A stretch of DNA of 64,000 nt, taken from contig CM059432.1 of the NCBI GenBank assembly GCA_030390025.1, positions 82,028,001-82,092,000 on the forward strand, written 5' to 3'. A program made the translations under genes and the position numbers. Below the pieces are notes generated by a model that ran no database searches, was not told the origin of the DNA, and was given only the letters and a program-made list of their open reading frames with translations. The stretch comes from Squalus acanthias. Taxonomy: Eukaryota. Shown piece after piece: positions 12,581 to 47,242 of the stretch (position 1 is the stretch's first letter; every line of letters starts with the position of its first letter).

Positions 12581-14388
12581 TAAGAACATAAGAAATAGGA
12601 GCAGGAGCAGGCCATTTGGCCCCTCGAGCCTGCTCCGCCATTCAATAAGATCATGGCCAATCTTCTACCTCAACTCCACTTTCCTGCACTGTCCCCATAT
12701 CCCTTGATTCCCTTCATATCCAAAAATCTATCGATCTCTGTCTTGAATATACTCAACGACTGAGCCTCCACAGCCCTCTGGGGTAGAGAATTCCAAAGAT
12801 TCACCACCCTCTGAGTGAAGAATTTTCTCCTCATCTCAGTCCTAAATGGCCAACCCCTTATTCTGAGACTGTGACCCCTGGTTCTACACTCCCCAGTCAG
12901 GGGAACATCCTCCCTGCATTTACCCTGTCAAGCCCTGTAAGAATTTTGTTTGTTTCAATGAGATCACCTCTCATTCTTCTAAACTCTAGAGAATATAGGC
13001 CTAGTCTATTCAGTCTCTCCTCATAGGACAATCCCCCCATCCCAGGAATCAGTCTGGCGAACCTTCGTTGCACTCCCTCTATGGCAAGTATATCCTTCCT
13101 TAGGTAAGGAGACCAAAACTGTACACAATACTCCAGGTGTGGTCTCACCAGGGCCCTATAGAATTGCAATAAGACATCTTTACTCTTATACTCAAATCCT
13201 CTTGTAATAAAGGCCAACATACCATTTGCTTTCCTAATTGCTTGCTGTACCTGCATGTTAACTTTCAGTGATTCGTATACAAGGACACCCAGGTCCCTCT
13301 GAACACTAACATTTCCCAATTTCTCACCATTTAAAAAATACTCTGCTTTTCTATTTTTCCTACCAAAGTGGATAACTTCACATTTCTCCACATTATATTC
13401 CATTTGCCATGTTCCTGCCCACTCACTTAGCTTGTCTATATCATCTTGAAGCCCCTTTGCATCCTCCTCACAACTTACATTCCCACACAGCTTTGTATCA
13501 TCAGCAAACTTGGATATATTACATCTGGTCCCTGACATGAATCTGTCATTCATGAAAAAAAGACTTATGAAATAATACTGAGCGGCCTGCGGGTGGCGTT
13601 GTCCAGGGAGAGTATAAATGCTCGGGCACGGGCCCAGCTTGCGCAGGACATTCTTAACAGGAACTAGTGAAGGACACAACTAGACCTCCATGTTGTAAAA
13701 CAGTTGATTAAAGCTTTGTTTAACGTTTAGACCAAGTGCCTAGTAGTTTTCTTACATCAGTCCCCTCATCCAAATCATTGATATAGATTGTGAATAGCTG
13801 AGGCCCAAGCACTGATCCTTGCGGTACCCCACTAGTTACAGCTTGCCAATCCGAAAATGACCCGTTTATTCCTACTCTGTTTTCTGTCCGTTAACCAATC
13901 CTAAATCCATACTAGTATATTACTCCCAATCCCATGAGCCCTAATTTTGTTTAATAACCTCTTGTGTGGCCCCTTATCGAATGCTTTCTGAAAATCCAAA
14001 TACACCACATCCACTGGTTCCCCCTTATCTATTCTGCAGTTACAACCTCAAAAAACTCTAACAGATTCGTCAAACACGATTTCCCTTTCATAAATCTGTG
14101 TTGACTCTGCCCAATCCTATTATTATTTTCTAAGTGCCCTGTTACCACGTCCTTAATAATAGATTTGAATATTTTCCCTGCTACTGATGTCAGGCTAGCT
14201 GGTCTGTAGTTCCCCGTTTTCTCTCTCCCTCCTTTCTTAAATAGTGGGGTTACATTTGCTATCTTCCAATCTGCGGGAACCGTTCTATAATCTATGGAAT
14301 TTTGGAAGATGACAACCATTGCATCCACTATCTCTATAGCCACCTCTTTCAAAGCTCTAGGATGTCGGCCATCAGGTCCAGGGGATTT
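12581..14388 (-). mobile_element. CR1 LINE, RT domain to 3' end
   Basis: ORFs 14029-14352 (VPADWKIANVTPLFKKG, NYRPASLTS, KSCLTNLLEFFE) and 12897-13530 (KFADDTKL). Confidence 0.93.
13533..13759 (+). mobile_element. Solo LTR (227 bp) inserted in CR1
   Basis: TG...CA termini; perfect 5-bp TSD GTCCC (13528-13532/13760-13764); TATAAA at 13613 and ATTAAA at 13707; absent from the homologous CR1 site at ~8035. Confidence 0.8.
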
Positions 14389-25750: not shown

Positions 25751-25910
25751 CAAAAAGAAAATACTGCAGATGCTGGAAATCTGAAATAAAAACAGAAAAT
25801 GCCGGAGATACTCAGCAGGTCAGGCAGCATCTGTGAAGAGAGAAACAGAGTTAACGTTTCAAGTCGATGACCTTTCGTCTGAGTATCTCCAGCATTTTCT
25901 GTTTTTATTT
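25751..25910. mobile_element. Penelope-like pLTR fragment, inverted
   Basis: pLTR plus inverted short copy, flanked by TCTGACACAACTCT/TCTGACCCAACTCT direct repeat. Confidence 0.7.
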
Positions 25911-26049
25911 CTGACCCAACTCTGTTGCTACTTATAATCATGAATTGACCCTGAGCAATGCCACAGGTAATTTATTTGTTGTACTGTATAAATCACTTTG
26001 CATCCACTCCCATTGTACTGAATCTTGAACCCAACATAACATTTAAATA

Positions 26050-26430
26050 TAAAGAAGAAAAAAAGCAAAATACTGCAAATGCTGGAAATCTGAAATAAAA
26101 ACAGTAAATGCTGGAAACACGCAGCATCTGTGGAAGAAATTTTCCTTTTTTTATGATTTGGGTTTCTATTAGTTGTACTCCTCTAAAAACGGGGCACTTT
26201 TGTTAGATTTTAGGTTTGATGACACTGGTGCAACCCAGTGGATTCTTTGTGGGTTTTAATTGAATTTAAATAAAAGGCGCCTGTGGAAGAAAGAACAAAA
26301 GTTAACGTTTGAGGTCATGACCTTTAGAATTGACCAAGGGTCGCAAGACTGGAAACGTTGGCTTTTGTCCTTTCTTCTACAGATGCTGCCTAACCTGCTG
26401 ATAGTTTCCAGCAGGTTCAGGTTTTTAAAA
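26050..26430. mobile_element. Decayed head-to-head Penelope pLTR pair
   Basis: AAATGCTGGAAATCTGAAATAAAA...GTTAACGTTT and inverted GAAACGTT...CAGATGCTGCC...TTTCCAGCA. Confidence 0.6.
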
Positions 26431-26520
26431 AAAATTTAAGTATAAATCCCTGATTCAAACATTAATAAAAATTCCCCAACTCTCTCTTATTGTTGTCCTC
26501 ACTGAGCAGTGTGAATTTAC

Positions 26521-26816
26521 ATACCACGTGACAGTGGGAGCCGCCTGCGCTCTGTGATTGCGGGCTGTGACCCGGATGTGACTGCGCGGGCTCGGTGGCG
26601 CGAGCTTTGGATCGGAGGACGGTTGGTGCCGCTCACCGCCCGGGGCCAGACAGTGCGGGGACAGACAGCGCGGGACAGGCCGCCACCTGCCCGGGGACAG
26701 GCAGCGCGGGACAGGCCGCTCACTGCCCGGGGACAGACAGCGCGGGACAGGCCGGCCACCGCCCGGGGACAGACAGCGCGGGACAGGCCGCGCGAGCTCC
26801 GCTCCCGGCTCCGAGG
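26521..26816 (+). promoter_or_regulatory. CpG-island promoter / 5' UTR of the SPICE1 retrogene
   Basis: Abrupt switch from AT-rich to CpG-rich sequence; E-box CACGTG at 26525-26530; ETS-like CCGGATGT at 26572; CpG richness continues ~500 nt into the CDS. Confidence 0.65.
26638..26790 (+). repeat. 36-bp GC-rich tandem repeat (~4 copies) in the SPICE1 5' region
   Basis: Unit GCCCGGGGACAGACAGCGCGGGACAGGCCGCTCACT, starting at 26689, 26725 and 26761, plus an irregular first copy. Confidence 0.85.
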
Positions 26817-29402
26817 ATGTCGTCCATCCGATTGAACCGGTCCTCCCGCTCACATGCAACGGACAAGAGCCGCAAAAAGAAGGCGGGCCCGGCCTTGAAA
26901 CAGGAGTGGGACAGCACGATCAGCGACTTGAGCGTTCACCGGGCTGGCCCGGAGGAGCTTGCTAGGCGCCGCGAGAACCGCGTCTCCAAGAACCGGGCGG
27001 AGGCTCGGTGGGAGCTGCGGCAGCGGGCGGGTGGCGGCGGCCAGAGGCGGGGGCCAGAGCCTGCAGCGAGGGTCGAGGGGCAGCTCGAGCAGTGGCAGTT
27101 GCGGGAGGTGTTGGCCAGGTCTGACCGGGCTCTGGCCGTGGTCAGGGACCTGTTCGGCGATGCCCCGCGGCGGCAGGCCGGCTTTCCCAATGTGACAGTG
27201 GCACCCGTATGCCGGCAGGCGCCTTCCGCACGGCTGATCGCGCAGAGGAGCGACCAGCCCACGCAGCTGTCCATCCTCAGCGAGTCGGTCATGGACTCCC
27301 AGGCCCTCAATGAAACCGACGGTGGAACCTCCAACCCTAAGCTGTCAGAGGAGAGGCAGGAAGAAGCCGACGCTTCTGTGTCCATGGACTATCAGACCAG
27401 CGTTGACAGCAGCCGTCACCTACCAGAGAGGAAGGAACAGGAAACCCCTAAGCCCACAACACAGTCCACAGGAGAACGCTCCCATACACCACCGAACCAG
27501 TCTTTGGGTTCAAAGACCCTTGAGACTCCCTGCACGCCAGACCGTGCCTCCGTGATCCACACAGGTTTAAATGCTACTGCTGCAATCCAGAGAGTGAAGT
27601 CAAGAGTGGAAAGTAGAGCTGAAAACAATACAGAACCAGATGGCTCATCCCAGTCCGAAACCGCAAGGGTAATTCGACAAGTACTTCATCCTAGTTCAAG
27701 GGACTCAAAAAAGGACATTTCAAATGATAAAAATTGCAATATGTCTACCAAAAGAATGGAAGACAGTAGGCAAGAGGACAGGCAGCTGAGCCTGGAGGTA
27801 CTGCAGGAAATGATTGAGAATATTGACCAGGAGATGGTGGAATATGAACGCCAGACAGGACGTGAGGTCACGGGCTTGTTGCCGCAGAGAGGTCGTAGTC
27901 TAACAGGTTTCACTTTCTCGTTGGTCAGCTTGATAAGCAGACTGACCCACTATCTAAAAGAGAATGACATTCAGCAATGGCAGGAGAAAGAAAACCATCA
28001 GCAACTTCTAAAAAAATCCAAGGAACAACGAGCACTGATTGATGCACTGACAGCAGAATTTCTGACAATACAAGATGAAATTATTTCTGTGCAGGCTAAC
28101 CTGCATCAGTATATGATCAAAACAGATGAAGAGCTGTTCTTGTTGAAACAAATGTTGCATGGATCTACAGAAGCAGAAGGAACTAAACCAAAGCCAAGAC
28201 TAAACATTGCGCCTGAAGTTAGGGAGACAGCAGTGGAAGGAGCAAGTTTACATGCATGTGCCTACCCTGACAAACGAGATAAAGTAAATGCACCTCTTTT
28301 ACGGGCTGTACCAAATATTGAAGAGGAGCTTTTAGGAAGTTTGGTAAATAAACAGCCCTGTGCTTATCAGTACAAGGGGATACTGTTAGAAAAAGCTAGA
28401 AGAGGTCAAAGTTTACCTGAGCATCTATTTGGCTCTGCTGTGTTGCTTTCTCCCCCAAGACAGAGGAACAGCCAAGTAAGTACTGGATCACAAACTACAG
28501 TTAATTTGTTTCAAGAAAGGCTTCAGCCTAATGTATATCTGGAATCAACTGATGCTCATCGTTCACAAATTCATAAGGAAGCTTCAGTGTCACCAGTTGT
28601 ACTACAAGGAGAAAAAGACTCTAAAGAATACTTGGCAACACAAAACCAAAACCAGCTGCAAGATCATGAGGATCTTGCCCAGCAATGGAAGTTTTTGAAT
28701 GCTAACGAAAGACATAAGAGCTTGAGTGTCACTTCGCCTGTTACTAATTTGCCTCAAATGCACCCAGTGCCTGTTGATGACACAGCAACATGCATTCTGA
28801 GAACAAAGGAGAGCAAGGTGCAAGCTGAAGGCAGTCAAGATCTATCTTTGGATGAGTGGCTTAAACATGAAGCGATGTTATCTCAAATTGCTGAGCTACA
28901 GTTGCAGAATTCTGCTCTCAAAGCCCATCTTGATCAGTTCAAAATAGGTAAATTATCTAATCCTGCACCACAAATTGAAAAGACCATTCACGGCACTTCT
29001 GAAAGTCTTCAGCAGAGGATCACTGAACTCAACCGTCAGAGTGCCGAGGCACGCAGCAAACTTTTGAACTTGATTGAACAGCAGAGACAAGTTTCTGGTG
29101 ATTCTGCCTCCCCACCTATTTCTCCTATTCCACCGGAGGGTATATGGACAGGAACTGGCAACAGAACACTGGAAGTGTTGATCCCTCTGCCCAATGGATT
29201 GGACTCTTCCACAGGCACCACACCTTCCCCTGCTAGCAAAATAAACAGAAGTAGATCTACAGATAATGCTAGTACAACTAGTTCCTCACTATATCTGGAC
29301 AAAGGTGATGGAAATAGGACACCTGTTACTCAAAGAATGAAGCCAGAAAGATTGAAAGAAGAAGGTTGGTTTGCATTGTCTACCCACACCATGCGATTCT
29401 AA
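26817..29402 (+). CDS. SPICE1: Spindle and centriole-associated protein 1 (CCDC52), intronless, 861 aa
   Basis: Colinear SPICE1 motifs from start to end: MSSIRLNR, KQEWDSTISDLSVHRA, GFPNVTVAP, ESVMDSQALN, LNATAA, EYERQTGREV.GL, LTGFTFSLVS, LIDALTAE, AVLLSPPRQ, LQNSALKAH, ELNRQSAEARSKLL.LIEQQ and C-terminal EEGWFALSTH; no stops or introns; ATG in AGGATGT context. Confidence 0.95.
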   Translation: MSSIRLNRSSRSHATDKSRKKKAGPALKQEWDSTISDLSVHRAGPEELARRRENRVSKNRAEARWELRQRAGGGGQRRGPEPAARVEGQLEQWQLREVLARSDRALAVVRDLFGDAPRRQAGFPNVTVAPVCRQAPSARLIAQRSDQPTQLSILSESVMDSQALNETDGGTSNPKLSEERQEEADASVSMDYQTSVDSSRHLPERKEQETPKPTTQSTGERSHTPPNQSLGSKTLETPCTPDRASVIHTGLNATAAIQRVKSRVESRAENNTEPDGSSQSETARVIRQVLHPSSRDSKKDISNDKNCNMSTKRMEDSRQEDRQLSLEVLQEMIENIDQEMVEYERQTGREVTGLLPQRGRSLTGFTFSLVSLISRLTHYLKENDIQQWQEKENHQQLLKKSKEQRALIDALTAEFLTIQDEIISVQANLHQYMIKTDEELFLLKQMLHGSTEAEGTKPKPRLNIAPEVRETAVEGASLHACAYPDKRDKVNAPLLRAVPNIEEELLGSLVNKQPCAYQYKGILLEKARRGQSLPEHLFGSAVLLSPPRQRNSQVSTGSQTTVNLFQERLQPNVYLESTDAHRSQIHKEASVSPVVLQGEKDSKEYLATQNQNQLQDHEDLAQQWKFLNANERHKSLSVTSPVTNLPQMHPVPVDDTATCILRTKESKVQAEGSQDLSLDEWLKHEAMLSQIAELQLQNSALKAHLDQFKIGKLSNPAPQIEKTIHGTSESLQQRITELNRQSAEARSKLLNLIEQQRQVSGDSASPPISPIPPEGIWTGTGNRTLEVLIPLPNGLDSSTGTTPSPASKINRSRSTDNASTTSSSLYLDKGDGNRTPVTQRMKPERLKEEGWFALSTHTMRF

Positions 29403-29457
29403 TGAGGTCTATAAATCCATATTTGGGCGATTGGAGAACAAACAGAATATACGTATA

Positions 29458-29595
29458 TAAAAAGAAAAATACTACAGATGCTGGAAATCTGAAAGAGAAA
29501 ATGTAGTTCTGAAGGGTCGGCACCAAAAATGTCAACTTGTCCATTTTCTCCACAGATGCTGACTGACGTGTTTCCAGAATTTTGTCTTTTTGTTT
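29458..29595. mobile_element. Decayed inverted Penelope pLTR in the SPICE1 3' UTR
   Basis: CAGATGCTGGAAATCTGAAA...TCTCCACAGATGCTG...TTTCCAG. Confidence 0.6.
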
Positions 29596-30289
29596 GCGCT
29601 TTTACATGTGTTGTATTTTCTTTGCATTATTGTGAATGGATAAAATGTAATTTTAAATTTCAGTGAGCCCTGAGCGGTTGGATATCTTCAATAATTGTTG
29701 ATTATTGATCCACAGAGACAAAATATAAGCTCTAATTAAGCTGTTGTGATGGGATGAAAAAGGATGGGGGTTTCCTTGGTCTGCTCTGGTTTTTCTAAAT
29801 TGAGCAGTTTAAATTTTATGGGGAGTGGTGCGGGGGTAGCAAGTCGGTAGCCCATTTTACATCACTCCCGATTTTAAATAAACATGAGATGTAAAACAAA
29901 CTGCCAATTTGCTATCAAGTGTTTGGGGGAAGGGGTGGCATTTGCAGCATGTTCTGTAGGCTCCATGAATTAATTTTTTTTGACCTGGCACAAGCAGCGA
30001 TCAATGTTTATAATGGGATAATCTTTTTTAAAATGATTTTTATTAAATTTAAACAATATGAAAGAATACATTACAATATAATTAAGTTATGTTAATAAAA
30101 CTTCCACAATTTGAACAAAAATAAAATGACTTTTTACGTGGTGTTTGAATCAAAGGTTTTCAGTGTTATCCATTCTCATAACCGGTCTGAGCCTCTTAGT
30201 TTGAGAGTTGTCTCACACTGCATTATTATCTACCTCTACGATAGCAGGACCCAGGGGTGTGGCATTAATAGCCCCAAATCCATTAGTGA

Positions 30290-32215
30290 GTACAGAAGCC
30301 TAGTTGTTTGAGTACTGGATTACCAACCCAGAAGTTGTGAGTTCAGATGTCACTGGCAAGGTGTGAAATTGAATTCAATAAATTTGGTATTTGTAGGTTA
30401 ACATCAGAAAAATAACTGAAAGCTTCTGGATTGTTGTAAAAATCCAATTGTTTTACCTAATCCCTTTTAGGGAAAGGAGCCTGACATAATATCCATGTAA
30501 GACTAAAGCAATCTCAGCCCAATCAGGCCTGCAACAGGTCATGCTCACCAACATTTTTGGGCTGGTGGTCAAGTTGGGACTTGGGAGAGCAACAACCATA
30601 CATAGTTGTACTCACAGAATCATATCTACCAGCCAGCATCCCACATTCCTCCATTCCAAACCTTGGGTGTAGCCTGACCTACCAGACAGTCCCACAACTA
30701 ATGGATAAGAGCAAATCTCTCTATCCCTACGACATTCAGTTGGGAATTAACAGGAGAAAGAGGCTTAATTAACATTCCCATCATCAACCATGGTGCAGCC
30801 CTGACTGCAAGAGATAAGTCTGAAATTTTTGAAAGACTTCATCCAAAAGTGCTAAGTGGATGATTCTACTCTGCCTCTATCTGAGGTTTCCACCATCATA
30901 GATAACAGTGTGTAGTAAATTAGATTCACTTCATGTAAAATTAAGAACTGGCTAAGTGCATTGGACACAGCAATGCATTGTGATGGACTTTGACACATTG
31001 CAATTACCACCCCATGAACCTCCTCCCAATCATCTGTAAAGTGCTGGAAAGAATTATCAATAGTGCCATCAAGCAACACTTACTTACCAATAACCTGCTT
31101 ACTGATGCTCAGTTTGGGTTCCACCAGAACTTCTTCATAACCTTGATCAGGAGATGAATGCCAGAGAACAGGTCAGCAGTTGCCCTCAACATTAAGGCAG
31201 CGTTGGACTGAATATGCCACCAAGGAGCCCTAGTAAAACTGAAGTCAGTAGGAGTCAGGAAAATGCTCCATTTGTTGGGAGTCACACGTGAAATGAAGGA
31301 AGGTGATTATCGGACGCCAGTCATGGCTGCTTGATCAATGACAATTCTTTCATCATAAGGTCAGGAGTGGGGCAGTTCACTGACAATTCAGTGTGCAGAT
31401 CCAGCAGATCCATTCGAAACTGCTCTGTTAATGGAGCAATGCATGCCAGCCTTCAGCAGGACCTGGATAACATTCAGGCATAGGCTGACAGTTGGAAGGT
31501 AACATTTGTGCCCTGTAAGTGCCAGATAATGATCATCTTAAACAAGAGAAATCTGTCATCTCCCCATGACTTTCACTGACATCACCATCGCCAAATCCCC
31601 AACCAACAAGATCTTGGAAGTTGCCATTGATCAGAAGCGGAATTGGACCAACCATGCTAACACCATGGCTACAAGTGCAGGGTAGACGTTGGATACTCTA
31701 CAACGAGTGGCTCATCTCCTGACCCCTCAAAGCCTCTGCACCATCTACAAGGCTCAAGTCAGGAATGTAATGGAATACCACTTGCCTGGATAGGTGCAGC
31801 TGCATGGACACTCAAAAAGCTCGACACTATTCAGGACAACAGTCTTCTTGATCAACACACTTGCCACTGAATATCCACACTGGCACACTGTGGCTCAGTA
31901 TGTATGATCCACAGAATGCATTGCAGCAAATGAACGAAGGTTACTTCAACAGCCCCTCCCTCCCCAGCAACCTCTACCACCAAGAGGACAAGCAGCAATG
32001 TCAGGAATACCATCTCCTCCAAGTCACCATCCTGACTTGGACATATATTACCGTTCCTTCATCATTGTGTCAATATACTGGAATTTACTACCTAGCATCA
32101 TTGTGGAGCCCCATCACCACAAGGACTTCAGCGGTTCGAGGAGAAGGCTCACCATTGTTTCTCAGGGCAACCAGGGACGGGCAATAAATGTGGCCTTATC
32201 AGTGTCATCCACATT
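30290..32215 (+). mobile_element. Heavily decayed CR1-clade LINE (family 2) with tRNA-like 5' head
   Basis: tRNA-like head, APE start (TNIFGL..QQPYIVVLTES), RT region homologous to 48737-50380, tail AGGGCAACCAGGGACGGGCAATAAATG. Confidence 0.75.
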
Positions 32216-32769
32216 TTGATAAATAAAAGCTGCTTTATTTCACACCATTTCAGGTTAGACTCAATTAATTCTACTTACGTTTGCATAAAATAAATATGCC
32301 ATGCTTCCCTATATCAGTGGGGTGTCTTAATGTAAACAAGATCACTTCTAACTGTCTTCCAGCATTTCTATCCTCTTAGTATTGGTGTATACTTTGCAGC
32401 TTTCTCTTCGAAAAACCTATTTGACTGCTTTTGTATTGGTCTTTGTGTTTACAGCCAGAAAGGAATTAAAGACCTTCCAACACAATGGATGTGAGGTGTT
32501 TATAAATTCCCGAGACAAAATAATAAATTGCTTGTTGCTTGCATTCTTTCGGGGAAAATAATCTCCATTTGCCAATTAAGCACCTTTCATCGAGGTACCT
32601 TTTTCAAATTTCTGGGAGTACACTTTGTTGTCTTATTTAGGATACCACTTGATTGTTGCTATTTTTGTGGTGCTTTGAGTGAGTGTCTTCCCTTTCATCA
32701 GCTTTATTTTTTATCGGGACTGCACTTTCAAAATCTCAACTGTCTAGCCTTTGGCCCTCCATTCACCAC

Positions 32770-34826
32770 AACATTTCTGCAACTACTGATCTGCTCATCC
32801 ACATCCTCACCACCACCTTTGATGCCCTAGTCCCCATTAAAACCATTATTCCCGCTCACCCTGGTATGGCCCTCATCTCCGCTCTCTTAAGTCCAAGGCA
32901 GGCAGAAATGATATGGCAGAGAACTGGTTTAGCCATTCACCTGGCTAGACCACATAAAGCATTATCGGGTCCTGCTCTCATCTGCCAAAACTGCTCACTA
33001 TTCTGGGATCATTCTGGAATGCAAAGATAACCCCCGGCATCTTTTCTCTACTGCAAACTGTTTTCTTAAACCCCTAACCCTGTGTCCTCCACCCTCACCT
33101 CCAACAACAAATGCGAGGAGCTCATGGAATTCTTTGTCACTAAGATTGAGACCATCCGATCAGCTACCTTTGCCACTTCCCTTCCTTCCCCTAACTCACC
33201 GGACCAAACTTCCTCCAAGATTCCCCCCCTACCCTAGCCCTGAACTCACATCTTTCTCCCGTTTCTCTTCAATCTCCCCTCATGTCCTCTCCGAGCTCAT
33301 CTTGTCCATGAGACCCATTTCCTGCTCCCTCAACCCTATTCCCACTAAACTGCTTACCACTGAACTTTCTTTTCTTGCTCCCATCTAGCGGATATTGTTA
33401 ATGATTCTCCACAGGTACCCTCCCCCTCAAAAAATAATCCTTGACCCCCTCCGTCCTTGCAAACTACCGCCCCATCTCCAACCTCCCTTTCCTTTCTAAA
33501 GCCCTTGAATATGTTGTTGCCTCCAAAATCCATGCCCATCTCTCCCGGAACTCCATGTTTGAATCCCTCCAATCAGGTTTCCGCCCCTGCCACAGTACCA
33601 AAATGGCTCTTATCAAAGTCACAAATGGCATCCTATGTGACTGTGACAAAGGTAAACAATCCCTTCTTGTCCTCAACCTGTCTACAGCCTTTGACACGGT
33701 TGACCACACCATCCTCCTCCAATGCCTCTCCACCATTGTCCAGCTGGGTGGGACTGCACTCACCTGGTTCCATTGTTATCTATCTAATCATAGCCAGAGA
33801 ATCACCTACAATGGCTTCTCTTCCCACTCCCGCATCGTTACCTCTGGTGTCCCCCAAGGATCTATCCTTGGCCCCCTCCTATTTCTCATCTACATGCTGC
33901 CCCATGGTGACATCATCTGAAAACACAGTGCCAGTTTCCACATGTATGCTGACGACACCCAGCTCTACCTCACCACCACTTCTCTCGACCCCTCCACTGT
34001 CTCTAAATTGCCAGACTGGATGAGCAAAAATGTCCTTCAACTAAATATCGGGAAGACCGAAGCCATTGTCTTCGGTCCCCGCCACAAACTCCATTCCCTA
34101 ACCACTGACTCCATCCCTCTCCCTAGCATCTGTCTGAGGCTGAACCAGACCATTTGCAACCTTGGTGTCATATATGACCCTGAACTGAGCTTCCGACCAC
34201 ATATCCGCGCCATCACTAAGACCATGTATTTCTACCCCCGTAACATCGTCCGACTCTGCCCCTGCCTCAGCTCATCTGCTGCTGAAACCCTCATCCATAC
34301 CTTTGTTACCTCTAGATTTGACTATTCTAACGCACTCCTGGTTGGCCACCCACGTTCTACCCTCTGTAAACTTGATGTCATCCAAAACTCTGCTTCCCGT
34401 GTCCTAACTCGCACCAAGTCCCATTCACCCATCACCCCTGTGCTCGCTGACCCCAGTTAAGCAACGCCTCGATTTTAAAATTCATATCCTTGTTTTCAAA
34501 TCCCTCCATGGCCTTGCCCCTCCCTATCTTTGTAATCTCCTCCAGCCCCAGCACCCTGATTTTAATCGCTCCACCATTGGTGGCCATTCTTTCAGCTGCC
34601 AAGACCCTAAGCTCTGGAATTCCCTCCCTAAACCTCTCCGCCTCTCTACCTCTCTTTCCTCCTTTAAGACGCTTCTTAAAACTTACCTCTTTGACCAAGC
34701 TTTTGGTCATCTGCCCTAATTTCTCCTTGTGTGGTTTGGTGTCAAATTTTCCTTTATAACGCTCCTGTGAAGCGCCCTGGGACGTTTTACTACATTAAAG
34801 GTGCTATATAAATAAAGTTGTTGTTG
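32770..34826 (+). mobile_element. L2 LINE, RT domain to 3' end
   Basis: NYRPISNLPFLSK, QSGFRPCHST, AFDTVDH, GVPQGSILGPLLF, YADDTQLY, SRFDYSN; AATAAAGTTGTTGTTG tail. Confidence 0.92.
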
Positions 34827-37157
34827 AGCTGTTGGGCGTAATTTTAACCTAACCCGCCGGGTGGAAAATCCACGGGATTGGGCGGAATGCCGGCTTCTAT
34901 GCACGTCAGATACCTGAATGACCAAAAAATAATTGTATGTGTTATAATTATTTTTGTTGCATAACTTCAGATCTTAAATTTAACCTAAATGATGTTCTCA
35001 TCTGATCTTGTGTGAATTCCCTGATCTTTGATTCAATATTTTATTCTGTTCTCTGACCTGCATTGAGCTTAATGCTGTTTATGCCTCATTCCTTCCTATC
35101 AAGCACTTATAGAAGTTACAACACAGAAACAGGCATTCAGCCCAACCAGTCTGTCAGCGTTTTTCCACCACGGGAGAAAATAGTCATAATCACATTTACC
35201 CGCCCTGTTTCTATAGTTTCATCTGCTTTTGTCATGTTGCTATGTGACAGGCTTTCAGTCCACTCTCATTTGCTGCATTATACCTTATCATTCAGCTGTC
35301 TTTTCATTTTAATAACTTTCCCTTTCATGTTTTTCTTTTTTTCTCTAATTTGTTTATGCCTATTTAAGCTCGTATTCTGCCTGTTGCTGGCTTTTTAACT
35401 TGTAGTTTGATGTGACAACTCAAATTTAATATGTATACCCCACTCTGCCACCAGCAGTACATAAATCAGTGCCCACCATAAGATCAGCATGAATTAGACA
35501 TCCATCCCCACCACTTCCTTGCCCCCTGGTGATAATATCATCACCACCACTCTACTGGACTAACTGGATGTGAACACTTATCCCACATACTCACCATAAG
35601 ACTGCCAGGGATCAACCATGGAAACATGCTTTCTTTTTGAAATTATTAGACTTTTGGAAATAAAATATTAAAAATAAGATAATATGCAAAAAGAACTTGT
35701 GCATTTGTTACTGTGTCAATCCGCACATGGCAACTCTTTCACTGCAAGGGTAGGAAACCTTGTGATAGGACATAAAGAAATACTGTTAGCTGGGGTGGAG
35801 CTACAAGCCGTAGGAAATAAACAAGAAAAAAGGGAGAGTGACCTCCAAACCCGAAATGGTTTAAATTTGAACCTTGAATGTCAGATCAATGCAAATCTGA
35901 CTTTTTAACATTGGGATTTAGCTCAAACTCAGCAATCATCTCTACTTCAAGTGCCCACATTTGTTGTTTAATAAAAACATTGTTTTTGTAAAACTTCTAC
36001 CCCAGTTCAGTGTGATTCACTTTCTTATTTGCTAATCTCACAACCCTGTGCCATGAAAATTTCTGTACACAGGAAGGAAATGGATACTTAAGAAATATGC
36101 CACTGTAGCGGATCAGATAAACAGTGCTGAATTCAGGAAGCACTTGCAGATGGCCAAAAAAGCAAACTTTGACTTAATTGGGTGCAGATACTGAGGAATA
36201 GGATTGCACTTGAAAAGAGCAGGTAATAGGAAGCCACGGAATAGCTGTATAGCTGCATTTTACATGATGTTGACTGGCTGCAGTTGGAAATCATTTGAAG
36301 GGGCAGCCGTGCCTGTGCAAGGAACTGCCGCTTTGATAAAGCAGTGAGGACTAAATGAAAGTATGGAGCACTGCGACGACAGCTAGATAGTAAAGCGTGG
36401 CATTATTAACGACCTTGTGGGCCACTTGTGGTTTGGGGAATATGAGAGGTATTCGCATTATTGAAGCCCGAGGAGAAAGAATTGTATTAAATGTCTCCTT
36501 CTTGTATCTGTCCTACTAGTTGCTGTACCATACCCAATGTTTAACTGCTGCTTCGAGTCCATGCTGTGGCTTAATTCCAGCAGCCAATACTGAGGATAGA
36601 AATTGAAACCATTGTGATGGCTTTGTGTTTTGCAGTGACTTTTAATAAGCAGCCTTGCTGCACTAACCACTCAACACAGTAAGTAGACTTTTTATTTGTT
36701 AATCACCGTACAGATTCAGATTTGAAATGCTTCTTTAAAACAATACATTCTAACTTTGATCATGAATTCGAATCATTACTTTTGTATTTGGGTAGGTGGA
36801 GTTTTGAAAACTCCTCGTATATTTTAATATCAGCTGATGACATTTTTTTATCCAGTTCCTTGATTTTACTTTATTGTTTTGGTGACTCAGAAAATGTTTC
36901 ATTTTTGGAGTCTGGTATTTTTAAAATGTGAATGCCATTATATTTTGTAAAGATGTTTATTTTAACCAGTTATTAACTGTACAGTAGTTGTTGCTATTAG
37001 TTCTTATCTAAACCTGAAAGTTCCTGTGTTTAATGCCTGATTTCTGCTGAATTAGCTGATCTTAGGCACAGATTGACTTCAGTGTTCAGGTTGGGGAAGG
37101 AGGGGGAAAGTCAGCTTGGATTAATATTCCGTCAACTTAGCTGAAAAGCGTATGTGT

Positions 37158-37380
37158 ATAGCTGCTTTTATACTGACACTTGTTTAGGTTGGAATTCAGG
37201 AGAACGGCATCTGTAAGTTGGCCCCTGGCATTTACACTACTAAACCCCACGATAAACTGGGTCTACAGTTCTGCCAGGACACCGGAATAAAGGAGTCATA
37301 GTGTAAATGCTAGGAGCTGACTCACAGACACCAGTCTCCTGAAATCAGAACTAAACAAGGGCCAATATAAAAGTGGCTTA
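37158..37380. mobile_element. Palindromic MITE (Tc1/mariner-like) inserted in a SINE
   Basis: ~80-bp imperfect inverted arms (CTTTTATACTGACACTTGTTTAG...GCATTTACACTA / TAGTGTAAATGC...CTAAACAAGGGCCAATATAAAAG); TA at the ends; SINE continues on both sides. Confidence 0.65.
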
Positions 37381-38227
37381 TGAGTGTCAGGTGAGGATAG
37401 GATCAGGAATGGCTGTGATGTCCCCATTGCTGGAATAACCGGATGACACTTGTTCTTTAGAAGAACAGCTATTTGGGTGAGGCACTGGAGGGCTGGCAGC
37501 TCTTGTGGAACTGTGCCTCAGCAAGAATCAGCACCTTTGAGGAAGAAGGGGAGAAAATTGGGAGAATTATTTTTCTTAAAAAGGCTTCATGTCCATGTTG
37601 CAACAAGTGTTTTTTTTTAGCCTTTGCAGCTAATAACAAGATAGCTATTAAAAGTGAGACAGGAGCAAAGGGAAGGAATGGTAGTTGTATGCTCTGGTAA
37701 TGCAGTTCAATGGCCGTGAAATTCTGCACCTTAGCACCGGTAGTTAAGACCTTTTTTCAAAAAAATGGCATCCGCCTCGCTTCCACCCACTTCTGGCGCG
37801 GCCCGCGCTGTTCACCATCTTGGTGAGGGCGATGGCGCAGGCAGCACGTGCTTGCGGCGGCAGTATGCAGAGTTGGCAGATTGTGACGTCAGTCAGCACG
37901 TAACACTGATTTGACGCACGACCTGCCATTATCAGCATCACCGCTCCATTCAACACCCTCTCCTAAATACGCACAGCTGAACCTGCATTCAGCTGCACGA
38001 GGGACCCCCCCCACCAGCGCTATTTAAAGGCAAACATCCAACTTGCAGATAAGTTGATTATTGCTCTTGTACTGGCTCTTGCAGAGTTCGTATGAGTACT
38101 GGGTTGCTGTAAGTGATTTAAAAAGTTGTTAAAGTGTGTAGGGAGTGCTGCTGGACATTGGGAAGGCGTTGGCTGCTACTGGAAGTCCTCTGACTACACC
38201 ACTTGCTCCCAGTCACGGGGTCTCTAG

Positions 38228-39370
38228 TTGCAGTTCCCCTTGCGCTGCAGCATGACAGGGAGATGGAGCAGTGGCAGCAAAGAAGACAAGCTGCTCGCAG
38301 AGAGAAGAAGAGGAGTGTGGAGGGCTCTCAGTAGGAGGCCTTACCCACCTAGGGTCTTCAGGGAGCACTTCTCCTGCCTGCACCTAAGCCAGGAGCAGTG
38401 TGTTCGGTGGCTCCACTTCACCAAGGAGGTGGTCACAGAACTCTGCCACTTCCTGCAACCAGACCTGCAGCCTCACAGCAGGGCAAGGACAGCTCTGCCA
38501 GTGGCCTTGAAGGTGACCGTGGCCCTGAATTTTTTCGCCAGCAGATCCTTCCAAGCTGGAGCAGGAGACATAGCAAACATCTCGCAGTTCGCCGTCCATC
38601 GCTGCATCCAGGAGGTCACAGAGGCTCTGTACTCTAGGAGAGGGGACTTTATTGTCTTCTCTCTAAACAGTGAGAAGCAGGAGGAGCGTGCACGTGGTTT
38701 TGCCAGGATATCGGGCTTCCCCATGGTGCAGGGTGCCATCGACTGCACAAACATAGCTTTGAAGGTGCCACATATGAATGATGAGATGTTTCATAACCGC
38801 AAAGGGTGCCACTCGCTTAATGTGCAGTTGGTATGCGACCACACCCAGCACACCATGATGGTGAATGCCTGGTATTCTGGCAGCAGTCATGATGCATTCA
38901 TCCTGTACCAGTCCACTGTGCCAACAATCTTCCAGCCACCACGTCGAACCCAAGGGTGGCTGCTAGGTGATGAGGGCTATCCACTCTACACCAGGCTGAT
39001 GACTCCCATCTGCAACCCCACCACTCGTGGCCAGCACTCATATAATGAGAGCCATGCTGCCATGAGGAATGTAATTGAGCAAACTATTGGGGTGCTCAAG
39101 CAATGGTCACGCTACCTTGTCCGCTTGGGAGGACCCCTCCAGTACTCGCCGGAGTGGGTGTCACAATTCGTGGTGGTCTGCTGCATCCTCCACAACTTGG
39201 CCATCATGAGGGGACAGCCCTCACCACCACGGGTCCGCAACCACCTCAGGAAGAAGTGGAGGAGTAAGAGGAAAAGGAGGAGGAGGAAGAAGGGAGGATG
39301 CAGCCTACAAATCCACGTGCCGGATGGGCTGTCCATGAGCGCATCATTAGACTCCGCTTCCCCTGAATGA
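38228..39370 (+). pseudogene. Harbinger DDE transposase (HARBI1-like), core open but termini frameshifted
   Basis: RRPYPPRVFR, KVTVALNFFA, GFPMVQGAIDCT, NRKG.HSLNVQLVCD, GSSHDAFIL, WLLGDEGYPL, YNESH..RNVIEQTIGVLK, CCILHNLA; the acidic tail is read out of frame and there is no in-frame ATG at the expected start. Confidence 0.88.
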
Positions 39371-39535
39371 AACCCCAGATCTCCATTGCTCAACACTTCC
39401 TCACCTTACCATTCCTCTGTCACAGAACATCACAGCGTCCTCTTGGCCACAATGCTGAAATGAAAGCCACCACGAAACAAACATTCCAAACTTAATTTAT
39501 AAATGATTAATTTCAAAACTACATAACAAAGTCAA

Positions 39536-41551
39536 CTAATCACCCTTGTACATTCCCTCAGTGCTGGTTTTCCGTGTGCCTTTGCCTATCCTAGTGCTCC
39601 TACGAAGTGCTACCCCAGTGACTGCAGCATGGCTGGTGGAAGGCTGCTGACTTTCAGTGGGGGAGACTGCAATAGCCTTGGAGGATGACCTCGAGCAGCT
39701 CTGGGCCTAGAAGGCCTGGCTGTAGACTGCACCACCTTGGCATGGGCGGCAGCAGTCTGAGCTGGCTGACTGACGGGCAACAGCAAGGGCACTGGCGGGG
39801 TGACAGTGGTGCAAGTACGAATGCTGTCATCCTGAGAGAGGACAACAGGTTCGTACTCCACAGAGTACTGGCACTCCCCCAGGGCGGCACCTCAGCAATC
39901 CTAGTAATCTGTTGGAGGATTGCTGGACTGCTGTGAGACCCTGCAAGCCTCTTTCCATGCTGATAAATCCAGCCAGGATGGCAGCTGTCTGAGCTTGCGT
40001 GGCAGAATTCTGAGCTTCCACTGCAGCACTCAGACATTGGGTCGCTTCCGCCTGTGCTGCAATGGAAGCTGAGCCATTGCTCATCAGACGCTGTATCATG
40101 GTTGGGTTCTCAAGTGCTCTACTGGAGTTGCCCATCACTTCCATCCTGGAAATCACGGGCTCCAAGCTCTGTGAAAAGCCCTGTGCAAGGTTGGAGCCGG
40201 ACTCCTCCATGCTCCTTGACAGTGACAACAGGCTCTCTGGCAGGCCTGTCAATGCACCAAGCATTTCTGTGTGCATGCCCATCTTCTTCTGAAGGCCGCC
40301 CCATCAAAGTCCTCATCTGAGTTCTCTGCAGCGGAACTTGTGTGAGACCTCACTATCCGGAGAGCTGGCACCTGCGCTACCCTTTCCCCCTGCCTTGGCT
40401 GCAGGCCACTTGTGCCTGGTGACTCACCACGTGCAGATCCCACCTCTATACTACCCTCTGAATTACGCGCAGTGCCAGTTTCTGAGCTGGTGCCTGCGAG
40501 TGTCAGATCAAGTGACGGTGTCTTTCTTCTCCATCACTCTCTTGTTCTTCCTGCACTGGCTGGGCTGGTTGGATTTCTTAGATATCTGAAAGGAGAAAGG
40601 CACAAGGGTAGGGTTGTGGTGAGGGGAGGGGGAAGCAGGATGTGCATGCTTACACCAGTAACAGCTTGTAAGTGAGAAGAGATTGTGGGATGAGGGGGAA
40701 GTGGGATGTGAGAAGAAGGATTAGGTATGAGCATACCGTCATCATCAATGGTTTCAGCCTTGCTGATCGCCACCACCTTAGTGACGGCCCCTCCAATGAT
40801 GTCTCGCACTGTCTCCTCCAGCTGGATTAGGATATGCAACCGTCCCTGCCCCCCGCCTATTAGCTGCTGCTGGTGCCGGTTATGCGCCGCCTTGGCCTGC
40901 AAGAGAAAGGGAAGTGTATCAGTGAGTGTGGTGCAATGTGTTTGAGGGATGTGCCTGTCATGGTTGAATAACTGGCAGTGTGTGCAAGGTGTGAGATGTG
41001 GGTGTGAGGCTTGCAACAGTGGTAAGTGTGTGAGGGTGAAGTGAAGCTATGATTGTGAGGTGTGAGTCGTGATTGATAGAGATTGTTGGTAGGTGAGTGA
41101 GGGGGGTGTGGTGCATTGAGCAGTGTGTGAGGCTAGTGATGCAGTTGGTGGGATATGGCATTTGAAGATAAATTCACTGACCTTGATCACTCGTGTGAGG
41201 TCATTAAACTTCTTTCGGCACTGGTGGAAAGACTGGTGGTACTGACCGCTTCAGTAATCTGCTCCCACTGCCTTCTTACAGTCAGTCTGGAGGGCCTCCT
41301 GGCCCTCTGTGGGTAGAGGACCTGTCTCCTCCTTTCAACCCCTGCACTAAGGCTGCCAGCAATGTTCCCTTTAAGCTGCGTGGCCACGTGGCTGCACATC
41401 ACTCCTGGGATCCCACGCAGCCGGCTTTTCAGTGCAGAAACCGCGCATGCGCGATATTTTGAATGGCCTGCCAAAAAAAATCACAGGGAACATTGGCCAC
41501 CAGTGCTGCGTTTGAGAACCTAGGTGCCCTTTCTCTGCCCTGTTGAGCCAT
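39536..41551 (-). pseudogene. Harbinger Myb/SANT-like DNA-binding protein gene, 3 exons (41551-41182, 40896-40737, 40585-39536), disrupted
   Basis: MAQQGRERAPRFSNAAL..VERRRQVLYP..W..QCRKKFNDLTRVIK / AKAAHNR..GGG; GT-AG junctions; MITE in exon 1, premature TAA at the start of exon 3, frameshifts. Confidence 0.8.
41360..41495. mobile_element. 136-bp hAT-type MITE inside the Myb/SANT exon
   Basis: 11-bp TIR CAATGTTCCCT...AGGGAACATTG; 8-bp TSD GCTGCCAG/GCCACCAG. Confidence 0.85.
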
Positions 41552-43861
41552 AGCTACCTTCCACTCTCCTTCACAACAATTTCAGAAAGCACCTCCCCTT
41601 TAAGAAGAGCAGACTGCATTTCAAACTGCAGGCTAGCTTTAAACAGAGCTCACTTCCCACAAAATTGGGCCCCCTGTTGAGCGCTCAGCCAACCAGCAGT
41701 GCTTTCAGCACTCGGCTCAGCGCTTCAATCATGTTAATTTGCAAGCAGCATGAATTTTGTGTGCTGCCTGCATTACTTTCAACGGGCACTTGCGCGCTGC
41801 AATCCCGTGCCCATTTTTGGGCCTTATCCAATTTAGCCCCCAACATCTTCCAATCCAAAAAAAAAATTGCCCCAGCTAGTAGTACCCCCTTCAGTGTGGC
41901 CTGATAGCTGATAGAACTGATAAAAATCCCACAACCATAACTGTTTAAAATAATGTTTATTACAAGTATCGAAGCAGATTGAATCAGAATTTGAATTTCT
42001 ACCACAGAAATTCTTATGAACCATTAAACTCACCTAATGTTATGCATAAAACATGGTATAGGATTAAGATTTGGGCTTTGTAGATGTCTTCTGATGAGCA
42101 ATTTTGAAGTTAACTATCAGTTTAAGAAACAAAACCTGAAAAGTATCTTTGTTAGTGCCCTAGCTATAGCTTTCTGGGAGTTTTGATCTGATGATAGACT
42201 TCCACAGCAAAAGTTACTCCCATATTCTTCTCTTACCTATAGTAAAGGTAACGTGAAAATTTAGCGGTAAATTATTTGGATTTTAAACAGAAACATTAAT
42301 CTAATATATGTAAAGTATTAGATATCTAGGTAAGGCAGTAAACACTGAACTTGCAGCATGACTGCTTCCTGTTATGTGATGCTGCATCGCTAGCTTTCAT
42401 TATAATGATTGCTGAGGCCTTCCTTCCTGTCAGATGATCTAAATGTCACAATAGAGGATTCCATAATGGAGCATTCCACAAATATGGAAAGAAAGCAATC
42501 GAACAACAAGCTCTTACTTAATTTCAATGAAAGGAAGAACTTGCATTTATATAGTGCCTTTCACAACATAAGCACTTCACAGACAATGAAGTACTGTTGT
42601 ATTTTAGAGAAATACAAATCAAATTGTATATATTGTAAAATACAGTTTATGTTAGACTTTGATGTGCCTCTCTGTTCCTGGCAAATATGATAGAGCAACT
42701 TGTACACTGTGTGATTTATATTGGAAAAGAACAGTTTCACTGTATGAGGACACAACCTCTAAAAATGAAGAGTTCCAATTTTGCGGTATTTCTCTCTAAG
42801 TCTGGTGGTTTTATACATTGCTCTACTTTCAGTCTATTTTTAAAAAATGTGTAAGTCTTGCCACTGACTTTTTTATTGTTATATGTATGATTCTGGTTTT
42901 TGAGTTAAAATAAAATATTTATCAGCAAAATTTTAGGCAGGAGACACAGAGATGGACGAAAGAGACTGGGGGAGGGGGAGACAGAGATAGAGTCATGTAC
43001 AGAAAAAAGTCAGACTAAGAGCAAAGCTCGTATAATAGACAAAGACTAACAGTAAGACTAGTAGAAGAGACAGAGACCAATAACAAAGACAAACATACAG
43101 AGAGATATGCACACAGGCAGAAAAATTGAAAGACAAACATACAGACACGTACGACATCCAATGCAGTGAAAACATGTTGTATTAATAACATTCATAATTG
43201 TGTGCTATAAACAAAAAATTGTGAAGTGACATCATCTTTATGGATAGGCTGACTAACCTTTATTTATTTAGAAACAGAATGAAAAGGCATAAAGCCTGCT
43301 GAAACACATCATTGCAGTATTTGGGTATAATGCGGTATATTTTCTTCTGTGTATAAGGTATATAATGAGGATTTAGTAAAAGAATCATTCTTCGACTGTA
43401 CACACAGAGGAAATATGCTCCAATGTTACTGTGATGAAGATGGTGAAAGATTCCTGGCTGTTCCCCTCACAAACAAAGACTGGTTGACCAAACACTTTCT
43501 CCAGGGGAGGGCTGCTCCAAAAAGAGAAAAGCCTAACAACGGGGTACTTCTTTGTGTTAAAATGAAGCAGTTTTAATAAAGTCATAACCATACTATCCAT
43601 GAGGAAGATACGAGACTTTGGGGAGAGAGTAAGCAGTGAGCTTAGTTTGAGCTTGCTCTGGCCTCCTTGTGTGTTGCCAACTTTTCTGGTTCTATAAAGA
43701 AATGCAGGTAACTTATGAACAGCAGCAACGGTATTTTGACTAAAATGTTAGCCTAAAATGGGGCCGGGTGACTATCCATACAGATATCATCATTTCATTC
43801 ATTGAATATTAGCAGAGACTTGGAAAAAATAGCAGCGCTTATTCCTGAGTGGTAATGACTA

Positions 43862-44165
43862 AGTAACATAGGAACAGGCGTAGGCCATTCAGCCCCTCGA
43901 GCCTGTTTCGCGATTCAACTAGATCATGGCTGATCTGTATCTCAATTCCATTTACCCCCCCCCCCCCACCCCTTGGTTCCATATCCCTTAATACCCTTGC
44001 CTAACAAAAATCTATCAATCTGAGTTTTGAAATTTTTAATTCAACTAACCTCAGCAGCTTTTTTGGGGAGAGAGTTCCATATTGTCACTACCCTTTGTGT
44101 GAAGCAGTGCTTGTTGACATCGTCCCTAAACAGCCTAGCTGTAATTTTAAGTTTATGCCCCTTTA
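43862..44165 (-). mobile_element. CR1 3'-end fragment
   Basis: AACATAGGAACAGGCGTAGGCCATTCAGCCCCTCGAGCCTG... Confidence 0.8.
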
Positions 44166-44324
44166 AGGATTACAGGCAATCTTGTTTCTTTCCTGTATCT
44201 TCTAAGCAAATTCCTTGCCAGTGTTTGCTCATTTACATCGAGAGTTTAGCTAAGCCTGTTACAGTGCTTTGTTTTTTATGTCTTCCATTTCCAGTAAGTT
44301 TGAATGTCTATTCATCTGTATCAC

Positions 44325-44530
44325 TCTCTGACTGACTGCAATTCTGTCTGACTGATCGACTGGTTGTATGTCCACCTGCTGATTGTCTACCTACCTGTCT
44401 GCCCGCCCACCTGACCGTCTATTTATCTGACTGACTACTATGTGTGACTGACTGATCATCTACCTGTCTGTCTGGCTGCCTGTGTTTCTGATTATTTGCC
44501 TGTCTACTTGACAGACTGAATAACTGACTA
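44325..44530. repeat. Degenerate (CTGA/CTGT/CCTG)n microsatellite
   Basis: Repeated tetramers CTGA, CTGT, CTAC. Confidence 0.7.
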
Positions 44531-45456
44531 CTTGCCATACAATAGGATCATGCAGTTACAAATTTTGGTGATAAATAAAGCAGAAGGCCCTGTAAACCTA
44601 AACACTGGATGGTGTACTGGGCTGTGTGTTCTCCTGACTGATTAGACCATCAAAAACATTGAGAAACATTTTGACGAATGGAACATTCTACAGAATAAAA
44701 ACCTTAAAAGTAAAGAATGCTCAAGGGCAAGCTGTTGTACTTGCATTAATTCAGAGTTCACATTGTGTATTGAATCTTTTTTATTAGAATGACAGATGGT
44801 TGTAAAAAGTGGCTAATTAGGTGATAGTACATGAAGAATGACTTTGCAGCTCTGATTGTTATTACAAAATGGAAGTCATCACACTCTAAGGAAGAGGAGC
44901 AGCAATTTTATATATGTTAATTTATTCAGATATCACTGCACTGTTTAATTAGATGCTGCCTGTCCTTCAATTGCAAAACTGTGTCCTGCAGCATCTTGTT
45001 CATGCCTGGATTGTTTTTTCACTCCGTGTTATTGAATTCAGGGAAGACACCAGTAACAATTAAGAACACTGCCCTTTGTGCATACACCAAGGAGGACAGC
45101 ATGACACTGTTCTCTGGTCAAATCCCGTCAAGTACCACAATGTGTCTTTATAATCTGGCTTTTAATATAAAAAAATTCATAAGCAGTGGCATAGCCCTAC
45201 AAATTGGCGCACCAGTGGCAGTGTCACTGAGTGGGACCTGCACATAGTACCAGCACCAGTGCATAGGGCCTGTAAGTTGGTGCAGCAACGCTCAGTGCCA
45301 CAGAATAGGAGGAATTATTTCAATCCTGCACTCTGCTCCGTTCCTGATTTGAGTCGCGGAGCAAAGACTAAATGTTTCCCTGTGCGGGAAGATAGAAGAA
45401 AGAGTTAGCAACTAAGAAGAAGCATATGCTTCATGCTGTCGGGAGATGATTGCCAA

Positions 45457-45627
45457 CAATATTCTCTTCAATTTTTTTTTGGGTGCACGGCTCCTTTAAG
45501 GGGCTGCGTGGCCCATTCAAAATACCGCACGTGTGTAATTTTATCCATTTAAGAGCTGGTGATCCGGCTGTGCAGAGCTCCAGAGCGCTGTGTGGCCACG
45601 CAGCCATGCAGTTTAAAGGGAATATTG
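45457..45627. mobile_element. hAT-type MITE, same family as 41360-41495, opposite orientation
   Basis: TIR CAATATTCTCT...AGGGAATATTG; TSD ATTGCCAA/GTTGCCAA. Confidence 0.8.
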
Positions 45628-45729
45628 GTTGCCAACCCTCCAGGATTGTCCTGGAATCTCCAGGATTAAAAATTAATCTCCTGGACACTGCTGCAAGCAA
45701 CCTGGGAGAAAAATTATAGGGGCCTTAAA

Positions 45730-47137: not shown

Positions 47138-47242
47138 TTGTGTTTTTTTCATTTTCTTTGAACATTTTTGTTTACTATAAAAATATTGGAGATGGGGAAA
47201 AAGGCGGTTTACCTGGGGTGGTGGGGGTGCAATTGGAGGTGC

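Follow-up and report, generated by a model that had tools for sequence, protein, structure and literature searches.

A stretch of 64,000 nt from the genome of the shark Squalus acanthias (assembly GCA_030390025.1, contig CM059432.1, positions 82,028,001 to 82,092,000 of the forward strand; hereafter the window) contains an intact SPICE1 gene whose coding sequence is free of introns. Human SPICE1 is a multi-exon centriole and spindle gene adjoining CFAP44 and SIDT1. The elasmobranch gene is probably a retrocopy that arose in the common ancestor of sharks and rays and replaced its intron-containing parent, i.e. an orphan retrogene. An old, functional intronless copy in place of its parent had already been proposed in a preliminary description of the window, and this proposal was supported by genomic DNA of a second species, coverage by RNA-like sequencing runs, the presence of one copy per species and a different chromosomal location in skate. 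A wider reading, according to which the copy replaced its parent before the split of sharks and rays, its promoter island reshaped the microtubule-binding codons 33-170 and 3′ exons are now being regained, is put forward tentatively and with clearly less confidence.

The SPICE1 reading frame and its orthologues

The uninterrupted SPICE1 open reading frame (ORF) of 2586 nt described previously was recovered on the forward strand at positions 26817-29402 (stop codon included) as a single unbroken, intronless frame of 861 aa. The Pfam family SPICE (PF15678) matched its residues 35-431 with an E-value of 3.1e-91 and 307 bits against a cut-off of 27, and the longest stop-free frame in 50 shufflings of the window comprised 228 codons, as compared with the 861 aa of the ORF. 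SPICE1 is covered from start to end, as had been claimed, but the motif GWFALSTH is not the terminus, since the ORF continues for 4 codons beyond it. The best matches of the protein were SPICE1 of the sawshark Pristiophorus (82% identity) and SPICE1 of Heptranchias (80%). In a quick IQ-TREE phylogeny of 40 rows, the 22 elasmobranch rows formed one clade with the chimaera as sister (Shimodaira-Hasegawa-like approximate likelihood ratio test, SH-aLRT, 100), and the Squalus protein was sister to that of Pristiophorus (99), a position that by itself points to a squalomorph shark as the probable source. Heptranchias was oddly placed with the rays (92); otherwise the topology broadly follows the species. 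Judged by its sequence, the product of the ORF is the SPICE1 orthologue.

For the assessment of copy number, the best 120 of 305 protein matches and further retrieved records were used. One SPICE1 per species was present in all 21 named elasmobranch species; the proteins are full-length and none was seen labelled low quality. A second chondrichthyan SPICE1 type was absent from these 120 matches, which reach bony orthologues of about 33% identity, and none of 140 further representatives of 50% clusters looks chondrichthyan. Four of the 140 were marginally nearer to chondrichthyan than to bony proteins, all of them weak matches or fragments. The skate table (supplement file 2 of PMC10115646) has, in the part covered, a single Spice1 name without the -1/-2 suffix that paralogues carry there, and it lists Spice1 as a promoter bait in HiChIP of histone H3 lysine 4 trimethylation (H3K4me3) from embryonic fin. 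Survival of the intron-containing parent beside the retrocopy, missed by annotation and with the copy perhaps germline-biased, is therefore quite improbable: no second type appears down to the bony orthologues, the one Spice1 of the skate table is among the active fin promoters, and conserved columns are kept as in the chimaera. It would be favoured by the protein evidence consisting of the best 120 and best 150 rows of the listings, and by the name '-like' of the sawshark protein as a possible sign of a second locus. The germline-specialised duplicate offered earlier as an alternative is likewise not favoured by the single type among the listed matches and the fin promoter. Among the models inspected, the chimaera SPICE1 (P0139, P0140) is divided in two at a frameshift in the newer assembly as an annotation oddity, and the model of the big-headed turtle (P0017) duplicates a 253-aa exon block.

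The Squalus protein keeps 112 of the 137 columns that are conserved in bony vertebrates, the same count as the chimaera, and 48 of the 247 variable columns. The copy is very probably functional, as far as such conservation indicates.

Four of 24 listed sequencing runs were compared with positions 25900-45800, all of them as contigs. Run X21, which is DNA-like and originates from another species, provided one contig of 3253 nt across 26766-30006 with 187 differences, and 7 of its listed contigs also match the flanks of SPICE1. X21 covers unique intergenic stretches and thus behaves as DNA; its contig across the intronless gene, together with the matching flanks, argues that the gene is not a cDNA artefact. 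An assembly artefact through contaminating cDNA, or a processed pseudogene too recent to have decayed, is very improbable. It is largely refuted by the same intronless gene and flanks in the second species; moreover, an exon lying 7.2 kb downstream is used by the sawshark model, and full-length orthologues occur in the 21 named elasmobranch species. In its favour stands the thin cover of the ORF by the DNA run X7 from Squalus itself, which was not used as evidence.

Transcription was assessed with the runs X5 and X9, whose RNA label is a program guess. Both behave as RNA because their depth drops to 0 in a pair of unique intergenic bins that X7 and X21 cover at depths of 3-18. One X5 contig spans 26761-29930 (depth 21, 12 differences) and another 29935-30149 (depth 10); X9, which belongs to a second study, covers 26987-29988 apart from small gaps. 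The ORF is thus covered by RNA-like runs of two studies and is taken to be transcribed.

Introns and chromosomal position

For comparison of the gene structure, the bony-fish SPICE1 locus L001 was spliced-aligned with its closest protein. The alignment yielded 13 GT-AG introns over roughly the first 660 codons, with an AG immediately 5′ of the ATG. The Squalus ORF is uninterrupted at 13 of 13 of these intron positions, which map to its residues 32, 48, 87, 121, 162, ~193, 249, ~298, 382, ~442, ~525, ~557 and ~730; the placement is approximate in variable regions, and the L001 intron at ~442, a short call, is doubtful. In turtles, birds, mammals and gar, the boundaries deduced from gaps between isoforms and from fragments of exon size match the L001 introns. 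Isoform labels were carried by 1 of 21 elasmobranch species, as against 58 labelled entries among 104 bony rows in a count by eye, the number of rows being inflated by the isoforms themselves. With a rough position weight matrix (PWM), no splice acceptor scoring above 0 was found before the SPICE1 ATG in 26511-26830.

Compared by eye, SPICE1 and CFAP44 come from records of the same length in 12 out of 13 bony taxa, Pleurodeles differing apparently by another assembly, and one gar model is a fusion of SPICE1 with CFAP44. According to a figure legend in PMC9680097, SID1 has the accession XP_007902257.1 in the chimaera and RXM98340.1 in the sterlet. The SPICE1 accessions, XP_007902258.1 and RXM98339.1, are each one number from the SID1 of the same species, and this adjacency, as in the sterlet, suggests that chimaera SPICE1 probably sits at the ancestral SIDT1/CFAP44 site.

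A different position was found in skate. Usf3, Atp6v1a, Qtrt2, Slc35a5 and Ccdc80 are taken here to be the human 3q13 neighbours of SPICE1. The supplement of PMC10115646 places skate Spice1 on Leri_4C at 62.55 Mb, Usf3 and Atp6v1a-1 on Leri_6C, and Qtrt2, Slc35a5 and Ccdc80-1 on Leri_13C, so that 0 of the 5 located neighbours are on Leri_4C. The comparison of synteny proposed before could thus be answered in part: skate Spice1 lies apart from all five located neighbours, and SIDT1, CFAP44 and BOC gave no location. SPICE1 is presumably on chicken chromosome 1 and AQP4 presumably on chicken chromosome 2. Skate LER4 has been linked to chicken chromosome 2 (PMC10115646), and the aquaporin whose number is closest to that of SPICE1 is aqp4 in 4 of 4 sharks, at distances of 307, 414, 1605 and 2428 numbers (Table 2, PMC13109646), if RefSeq numbers are assumed to track chromosome order. 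The genes beside skate Spice1 were not found in the skate supplement, the supplements of PMC13188829 and PMC8302630 (file 4 aside) held no matches, and the whale-shark accession neighbours of SPICE1 carried no positional information.

Several observations weigh against a retrocopy that replaced its parent. We infer the loss of the parent from protein-database listings, i.e. the best 120 of 305 matches. The adjacency of accessions is only a proxy for position, an unrelated chimaera gene, that of the mineralocorticoid receptor, being 38 numbers away. The five located neighbours are themselves divided between two skate chromosomes; SIDT1, CFAP44 and BOC have 0 rows in the part of the skate table covered (PMC10115646), and no chondrichthyan is present among the best 120 of 827 CFAP44 matches. 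Isoforms with a skipped exon are missing from the chimaera SPICE1 records, and in RefSeq a frameshift divides the gene into parts of 482 and 300 aa, a combination that is also compatible with a single coding exon. X7 covers the flanks of SPICE1, with no piece inside the ORF among those listed (55% of the run). Substitutions in X21 amount to 5.8% in the contig spanning the ORF and 4.7% in the flanks (gaps: 1.5% and 2.9%, respectively); conservation is no higher in the ORF contig than in the flanks, and constraint may accordingly be modest. There is no poly(A) tract around SPICE1, the richest stretches reaching 12+ A in 20 nt (4 places), nor was a convincing target site duplication (TSD) found, since the direct matches of 10-12 nt in the flanks consist of an AT-rich word and a piece of a dispersed repeat. 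The search of the flanks thereby agrees with the preliminary description, in which both hallmarks had been reported as missing. Their loss is expected from erosion in an old copy, which is hence not classed as a young LINE-1-type processed retrocopy. As a separate observation, the best 120 of the 827 CFAP44 matches go down to 59% identity, and the absence of chondrichthyans there is probably a ranking effect.

Some of these points would be explained by loss of the introns in place, through recombination with a cDNA at the original locus, perhaps in the chondrichthyan ancestor, followed by a later move to skate chromosome 4. The move could have occurred at the DNA level, alone or together with SIDT1/CFAP44, or by a second retroposition, and an exon at 36636 (see below) may then represent a CFAP44-type old neighbour. 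The chimaera records, SIDT1 and CFAP44 remaining without a location in elasmobranchs (skate table; best 120 of 827 CFAP44 matches) and the lack of an insertion scar at SPICE1 speak for this course of events. It is nevertheless unlikely. Residues 33-170 of the chimaera protein have the bony type of composition, unlike those of 22/22 elasmobranch rows; an old chimaera model extends upstream via pyrimidine-type residues to a Gln before the Met, which would suggest a kept splice acceptor; none of the five located neighbours is on skate chromosome 4; and a tblastn search with the gar CFAP44 model revealed no CFAP44 exon in the window (best E outside the ORF 0.85), 34.6 kb of which lie downstream of SPICE1.

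Retroposition with replacement of the parent is therefore preferred, and the following course may be envisaged. After the split from the chimaera, a spliced SPICE1 mRNA would have been reverse-transcribed, most likely by the enzyme of a long interspersed nuclear element (LINE), and the cDNA inserted on the chromosome that corresponds to skate chromosome 4. The resulting copy, as seen in the window and in one relative, lacks the coding introns as well as the intron before the ATG. A CpG island over the leader and the first codons would have acted as promoter. The parent at SIDT1/CFAP44 would then have been lost, as the databases suggest, leaving the copy as the only SPICE1, with the ordinary tasks in centriole duplication or elongation and in chromosome alignment. 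The splits concerned are roughly 410 and 270-300 million years old.

Probable promoter island, base composition and transcript ends

A CpG island, the probable SPICE1 promoter, is located at positions 26501-27500 (no strand assigned) and overlaps the 5′ leader and the first ~200 codons. In the bins 26501-27000 and 27001-27500 the GC content is 0.69 and 0.66 and the observed/expected ratio of CpG 0.97 and 0.71, respectively. The GC content at third codon positions is 0.74-0.90 in codons 1-200 and 0.16-0.56 in codons 201-850. Of the CpG-rich promoter ascribed to the gene earlier, the CpG richness was thus confirmed, and the role as promoter is probable, the skate orthologue being listed as an H3K4me3 HiChIP promoter bait. 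The leader contains a 36-bp tandem repeat of 3.8 copies on the forward strand (26656-26791; Tandem Repeats Finder). A faint similarity (tblastn E 5e-4) links this repeat to a SPICE1 contig of skate, in the leader as translated. Part of the SPICE1 leader may be common to elasmobranchs.

The base composition of the island is mirrored in the protein. In residues 33-170, the fraction of glycine, alanine, arginine and proline (GARP) is 0.35-0.43 and R/(R+K) 0.83-1.00 in 22/22 elasmobranch rows, as compared with 0.26 and 0.55 in the chimaera and a GARP of 0.18-0.25 in 15 of 17 bony rows; the exceptions, gar and bowfin, are rich in GC over their whole length. The shift reaches as far as residue 440 in bamboo sharks. 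Replacements on the elasmobranch stem, scored against a consensus without gar and bowfin, were GC-ward in 10 of 12 cases (1 AT-ward) in residues 33-170 and GC-ward in 1 of 10 cases (5 AT-ward) in the rest of SPICE1 (one-sided Fisher test, p about 0.001, calculated by hand). In relative-rate tests, residues 33-170 evolved faster than in the chimaera with 3 of 4 outgroups (chi2 8-19), while residues 171-861 did not differ from the chimaera (chi2 at most 3.6). The N-terminal acceleration was weak with gar as outgroup (chi2 0.4-5.1), a consequence of the GC shift that gar shows over its entire length. The elasmobranch N-terminal block is also shortened, with 138 versus about 148 aligned residues. 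A microtubule-binding region is contained in the N-terminus of human SPICE1, as stated in PMC6589576. The shift would be indirect evidence that these codons adjoin the start site, and hence lack introns, in elasmobranchs and not in the chimaera; the position of the island may have driven codons 33-170 towards GC-rich amino acids.

The 3′ untranslated region (UTR) was assigned to positions 29403-30149 of the forward strand. The AATAAA signals listed previously were found at 29877, 30094 and 30120, and the X5 contig 29935-30149 ends 24 nt past the last of them, contig ends being a weak hint only. The region also contains a dispersed-repeat fragment (~29460-29590) with a 12-nt match to 26377 and a spike of depth in the bin 29220-29883.

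The transcription unit extends beyond this 3′ end. Both RefSeq isoforms of the sawshark depart from the usual C-terminal sequence at a residue that corresponds to a weak splice donor in the last ORF codons (29362-29370, forward strand, GT at 29365; top 4.7% of 3179 GT with the rough PWM). The alternative tail of isoform X1 is homologous to a 43-nt exon on the forward strand at 36636-36678, 7.2 kb downstream: tblastn aligned it with 36635-36679 at 12 of 15 identical residues (E 1.6e-6), and 0 of 200 shuffled tails scored as high. The exon has an acceptor among the top 0.8% of 4091 AG and a donor among the top 2.0% of 3179 GT, and it is in phase with 29365. The match of an X5 contig (36325-36678, depth 2.6) ends exactly at the exon donor with 19 letters left over, the side being a reading of the table. 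Of about 4550 joints, 15 were displayed and 4533 were hidden by repeats; the absence of the joint 29364-36636 from those displayed is no evidence either way. The match of the X1 tail implies that window and sawshark share the locus and that, strictly speaking, the unit has more than one exon; the earlier characterisation as intronless thus holds for the coding sequence and not for the whole unit. For the sawshark X2 tail, the end of the X1 tail and an odd Stegostoma tail, no window match was found outside the ORF end. The interpretation of donor 29365 as a retained ancestral intron was rejected, as bony isoforms put the last junction near residue 842 and not 851, and a duck model has a different ending from this very point; the site thus looks like an old cryptic donor. 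In at least one squalomorph shark the weak donor near the stop appears to be spliced to downstream exons, giving alternative tails; the exon 36636-36678 may have been newly gained or may be part of a neighbouring or host transcript.

Outside SPICE1 the window is repeat-rich. Among 262 stop-to-stop frames of at least 62 aa outside the ORF, Pfam detected RVT_1 in 6 and a DDE transposase in 1, in addition to two sub-threshold matches, and neither SID-1 nor another cellular family, although exons in shorter frames would escape. The earlier remark that no CFAP44 or SIDT1 exon is recognisable in the window is upheld within these limits by tblastn (CFAP44) and Pfam (SID-1), both of which would miss short exons. 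No Rfam match was obtained in the window. An open DDE_Tnp_4 transposase frame of 372 aa, presumably of the Harbinger type, is located on the forward strand at 38252-39370 (E 2e-31) within a high-copy stretch (~37850-41800). This open frame weakens the earlier argument for selection on SPICE1 from the broken frames of nearby mobile elements. Contig depth is very high there, no terminal inverted repeat stood out (the best had 11 nt), and on the strand opposite to the transposase there is a 151-aa frame without Pfam match (39827-40282). Further features include a CpG-rich 21-bp tandem array of about 54 copies (47241-48311; CpG observed/expected 1.1-1.4), a pyrimidine-rich 40-bp minisatellite of 15.6 copies (2349-2969) that gives rise to spurious ORFs of 223 and 259 aa, CpG-rich patches without Pfam match (4501-5500 and 61501-62000) that are possibly transposon remnants or regulatory elements, and two LINE fragments (7104-8260 and 12582-13980) that share about 93% identity and lie among numerous older RVT_1 fragments.

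Comparison with known retrogenes and implications

Elasmobranch SPICE1 resembles vertebrate SPICE1 (CCDC52, PF15678) in its domain, its conserved columns and its orthologous position in the tree; it differs in the absence of coding introns, the other chromosome (skate), the shorter, GC-shifted N-terminal block and the alternative tails (sawshark). Orphan retrogenes have been catalogued mainly in mammals, with 25 human candidates in PMC3548309 and 10 mammalian families, 9 of them with a CpG-island promoter, in PMC4772013. As in the cases presented there, the elasmobranch gene is intronless compared with multi-exon outgroups, no parent was found, and it has a CpG-island promoter and apparently somatic expression. 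Unlike those surveyed in human and mammals, the event predates the shark-ray split and the island overlaps much of the conserved domain; the added exon is 3′, whereas such exons are mostly upstream in the retrogenes of PMC4772013. Neither SPICE/CCDC52 nor the word 'shark' occurs in the main text of PMC3548309. Retroposition is common in cartilaginous fish, for which 14,081 retrocopies were reported in the genomes of the Vertebrate Genomes Project (bioRxiv 10.64898/2026.06.26.734816). According to that text, 95.7% of the retrocopies are species-specific and 15.7% keep their ORF, whereas the SPICE1 copy is elasmobranch-wide and intact; SPICE1 and the word 'orphan' are absent from its main text. 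An earlier report of an intronless elasmobranch SPICE1 was not found in the literature searched, which covered few subscription journals.

As this class of event is known, the gene serves as a good example of it rather than revealing a new mechanism. If the proposed origin is correct, it would provide a rare genomic marker for the clade of sharks and rays, and searches for orthologues based on synteny would wrongly call SPICE1 lost in these animals. The restriction of the GC shift to the codons of the island offers a direct test of promoter-linked bias fixing amino-acid changes, with the chimaera as control, and would represent a long natural experiment in which promoter-driven base bias changed a conserved protein domain. 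Elasmobranch SPICE1 would also demonstrate that a cell-division gene can outlive a complete change of locus, introns and promoter.

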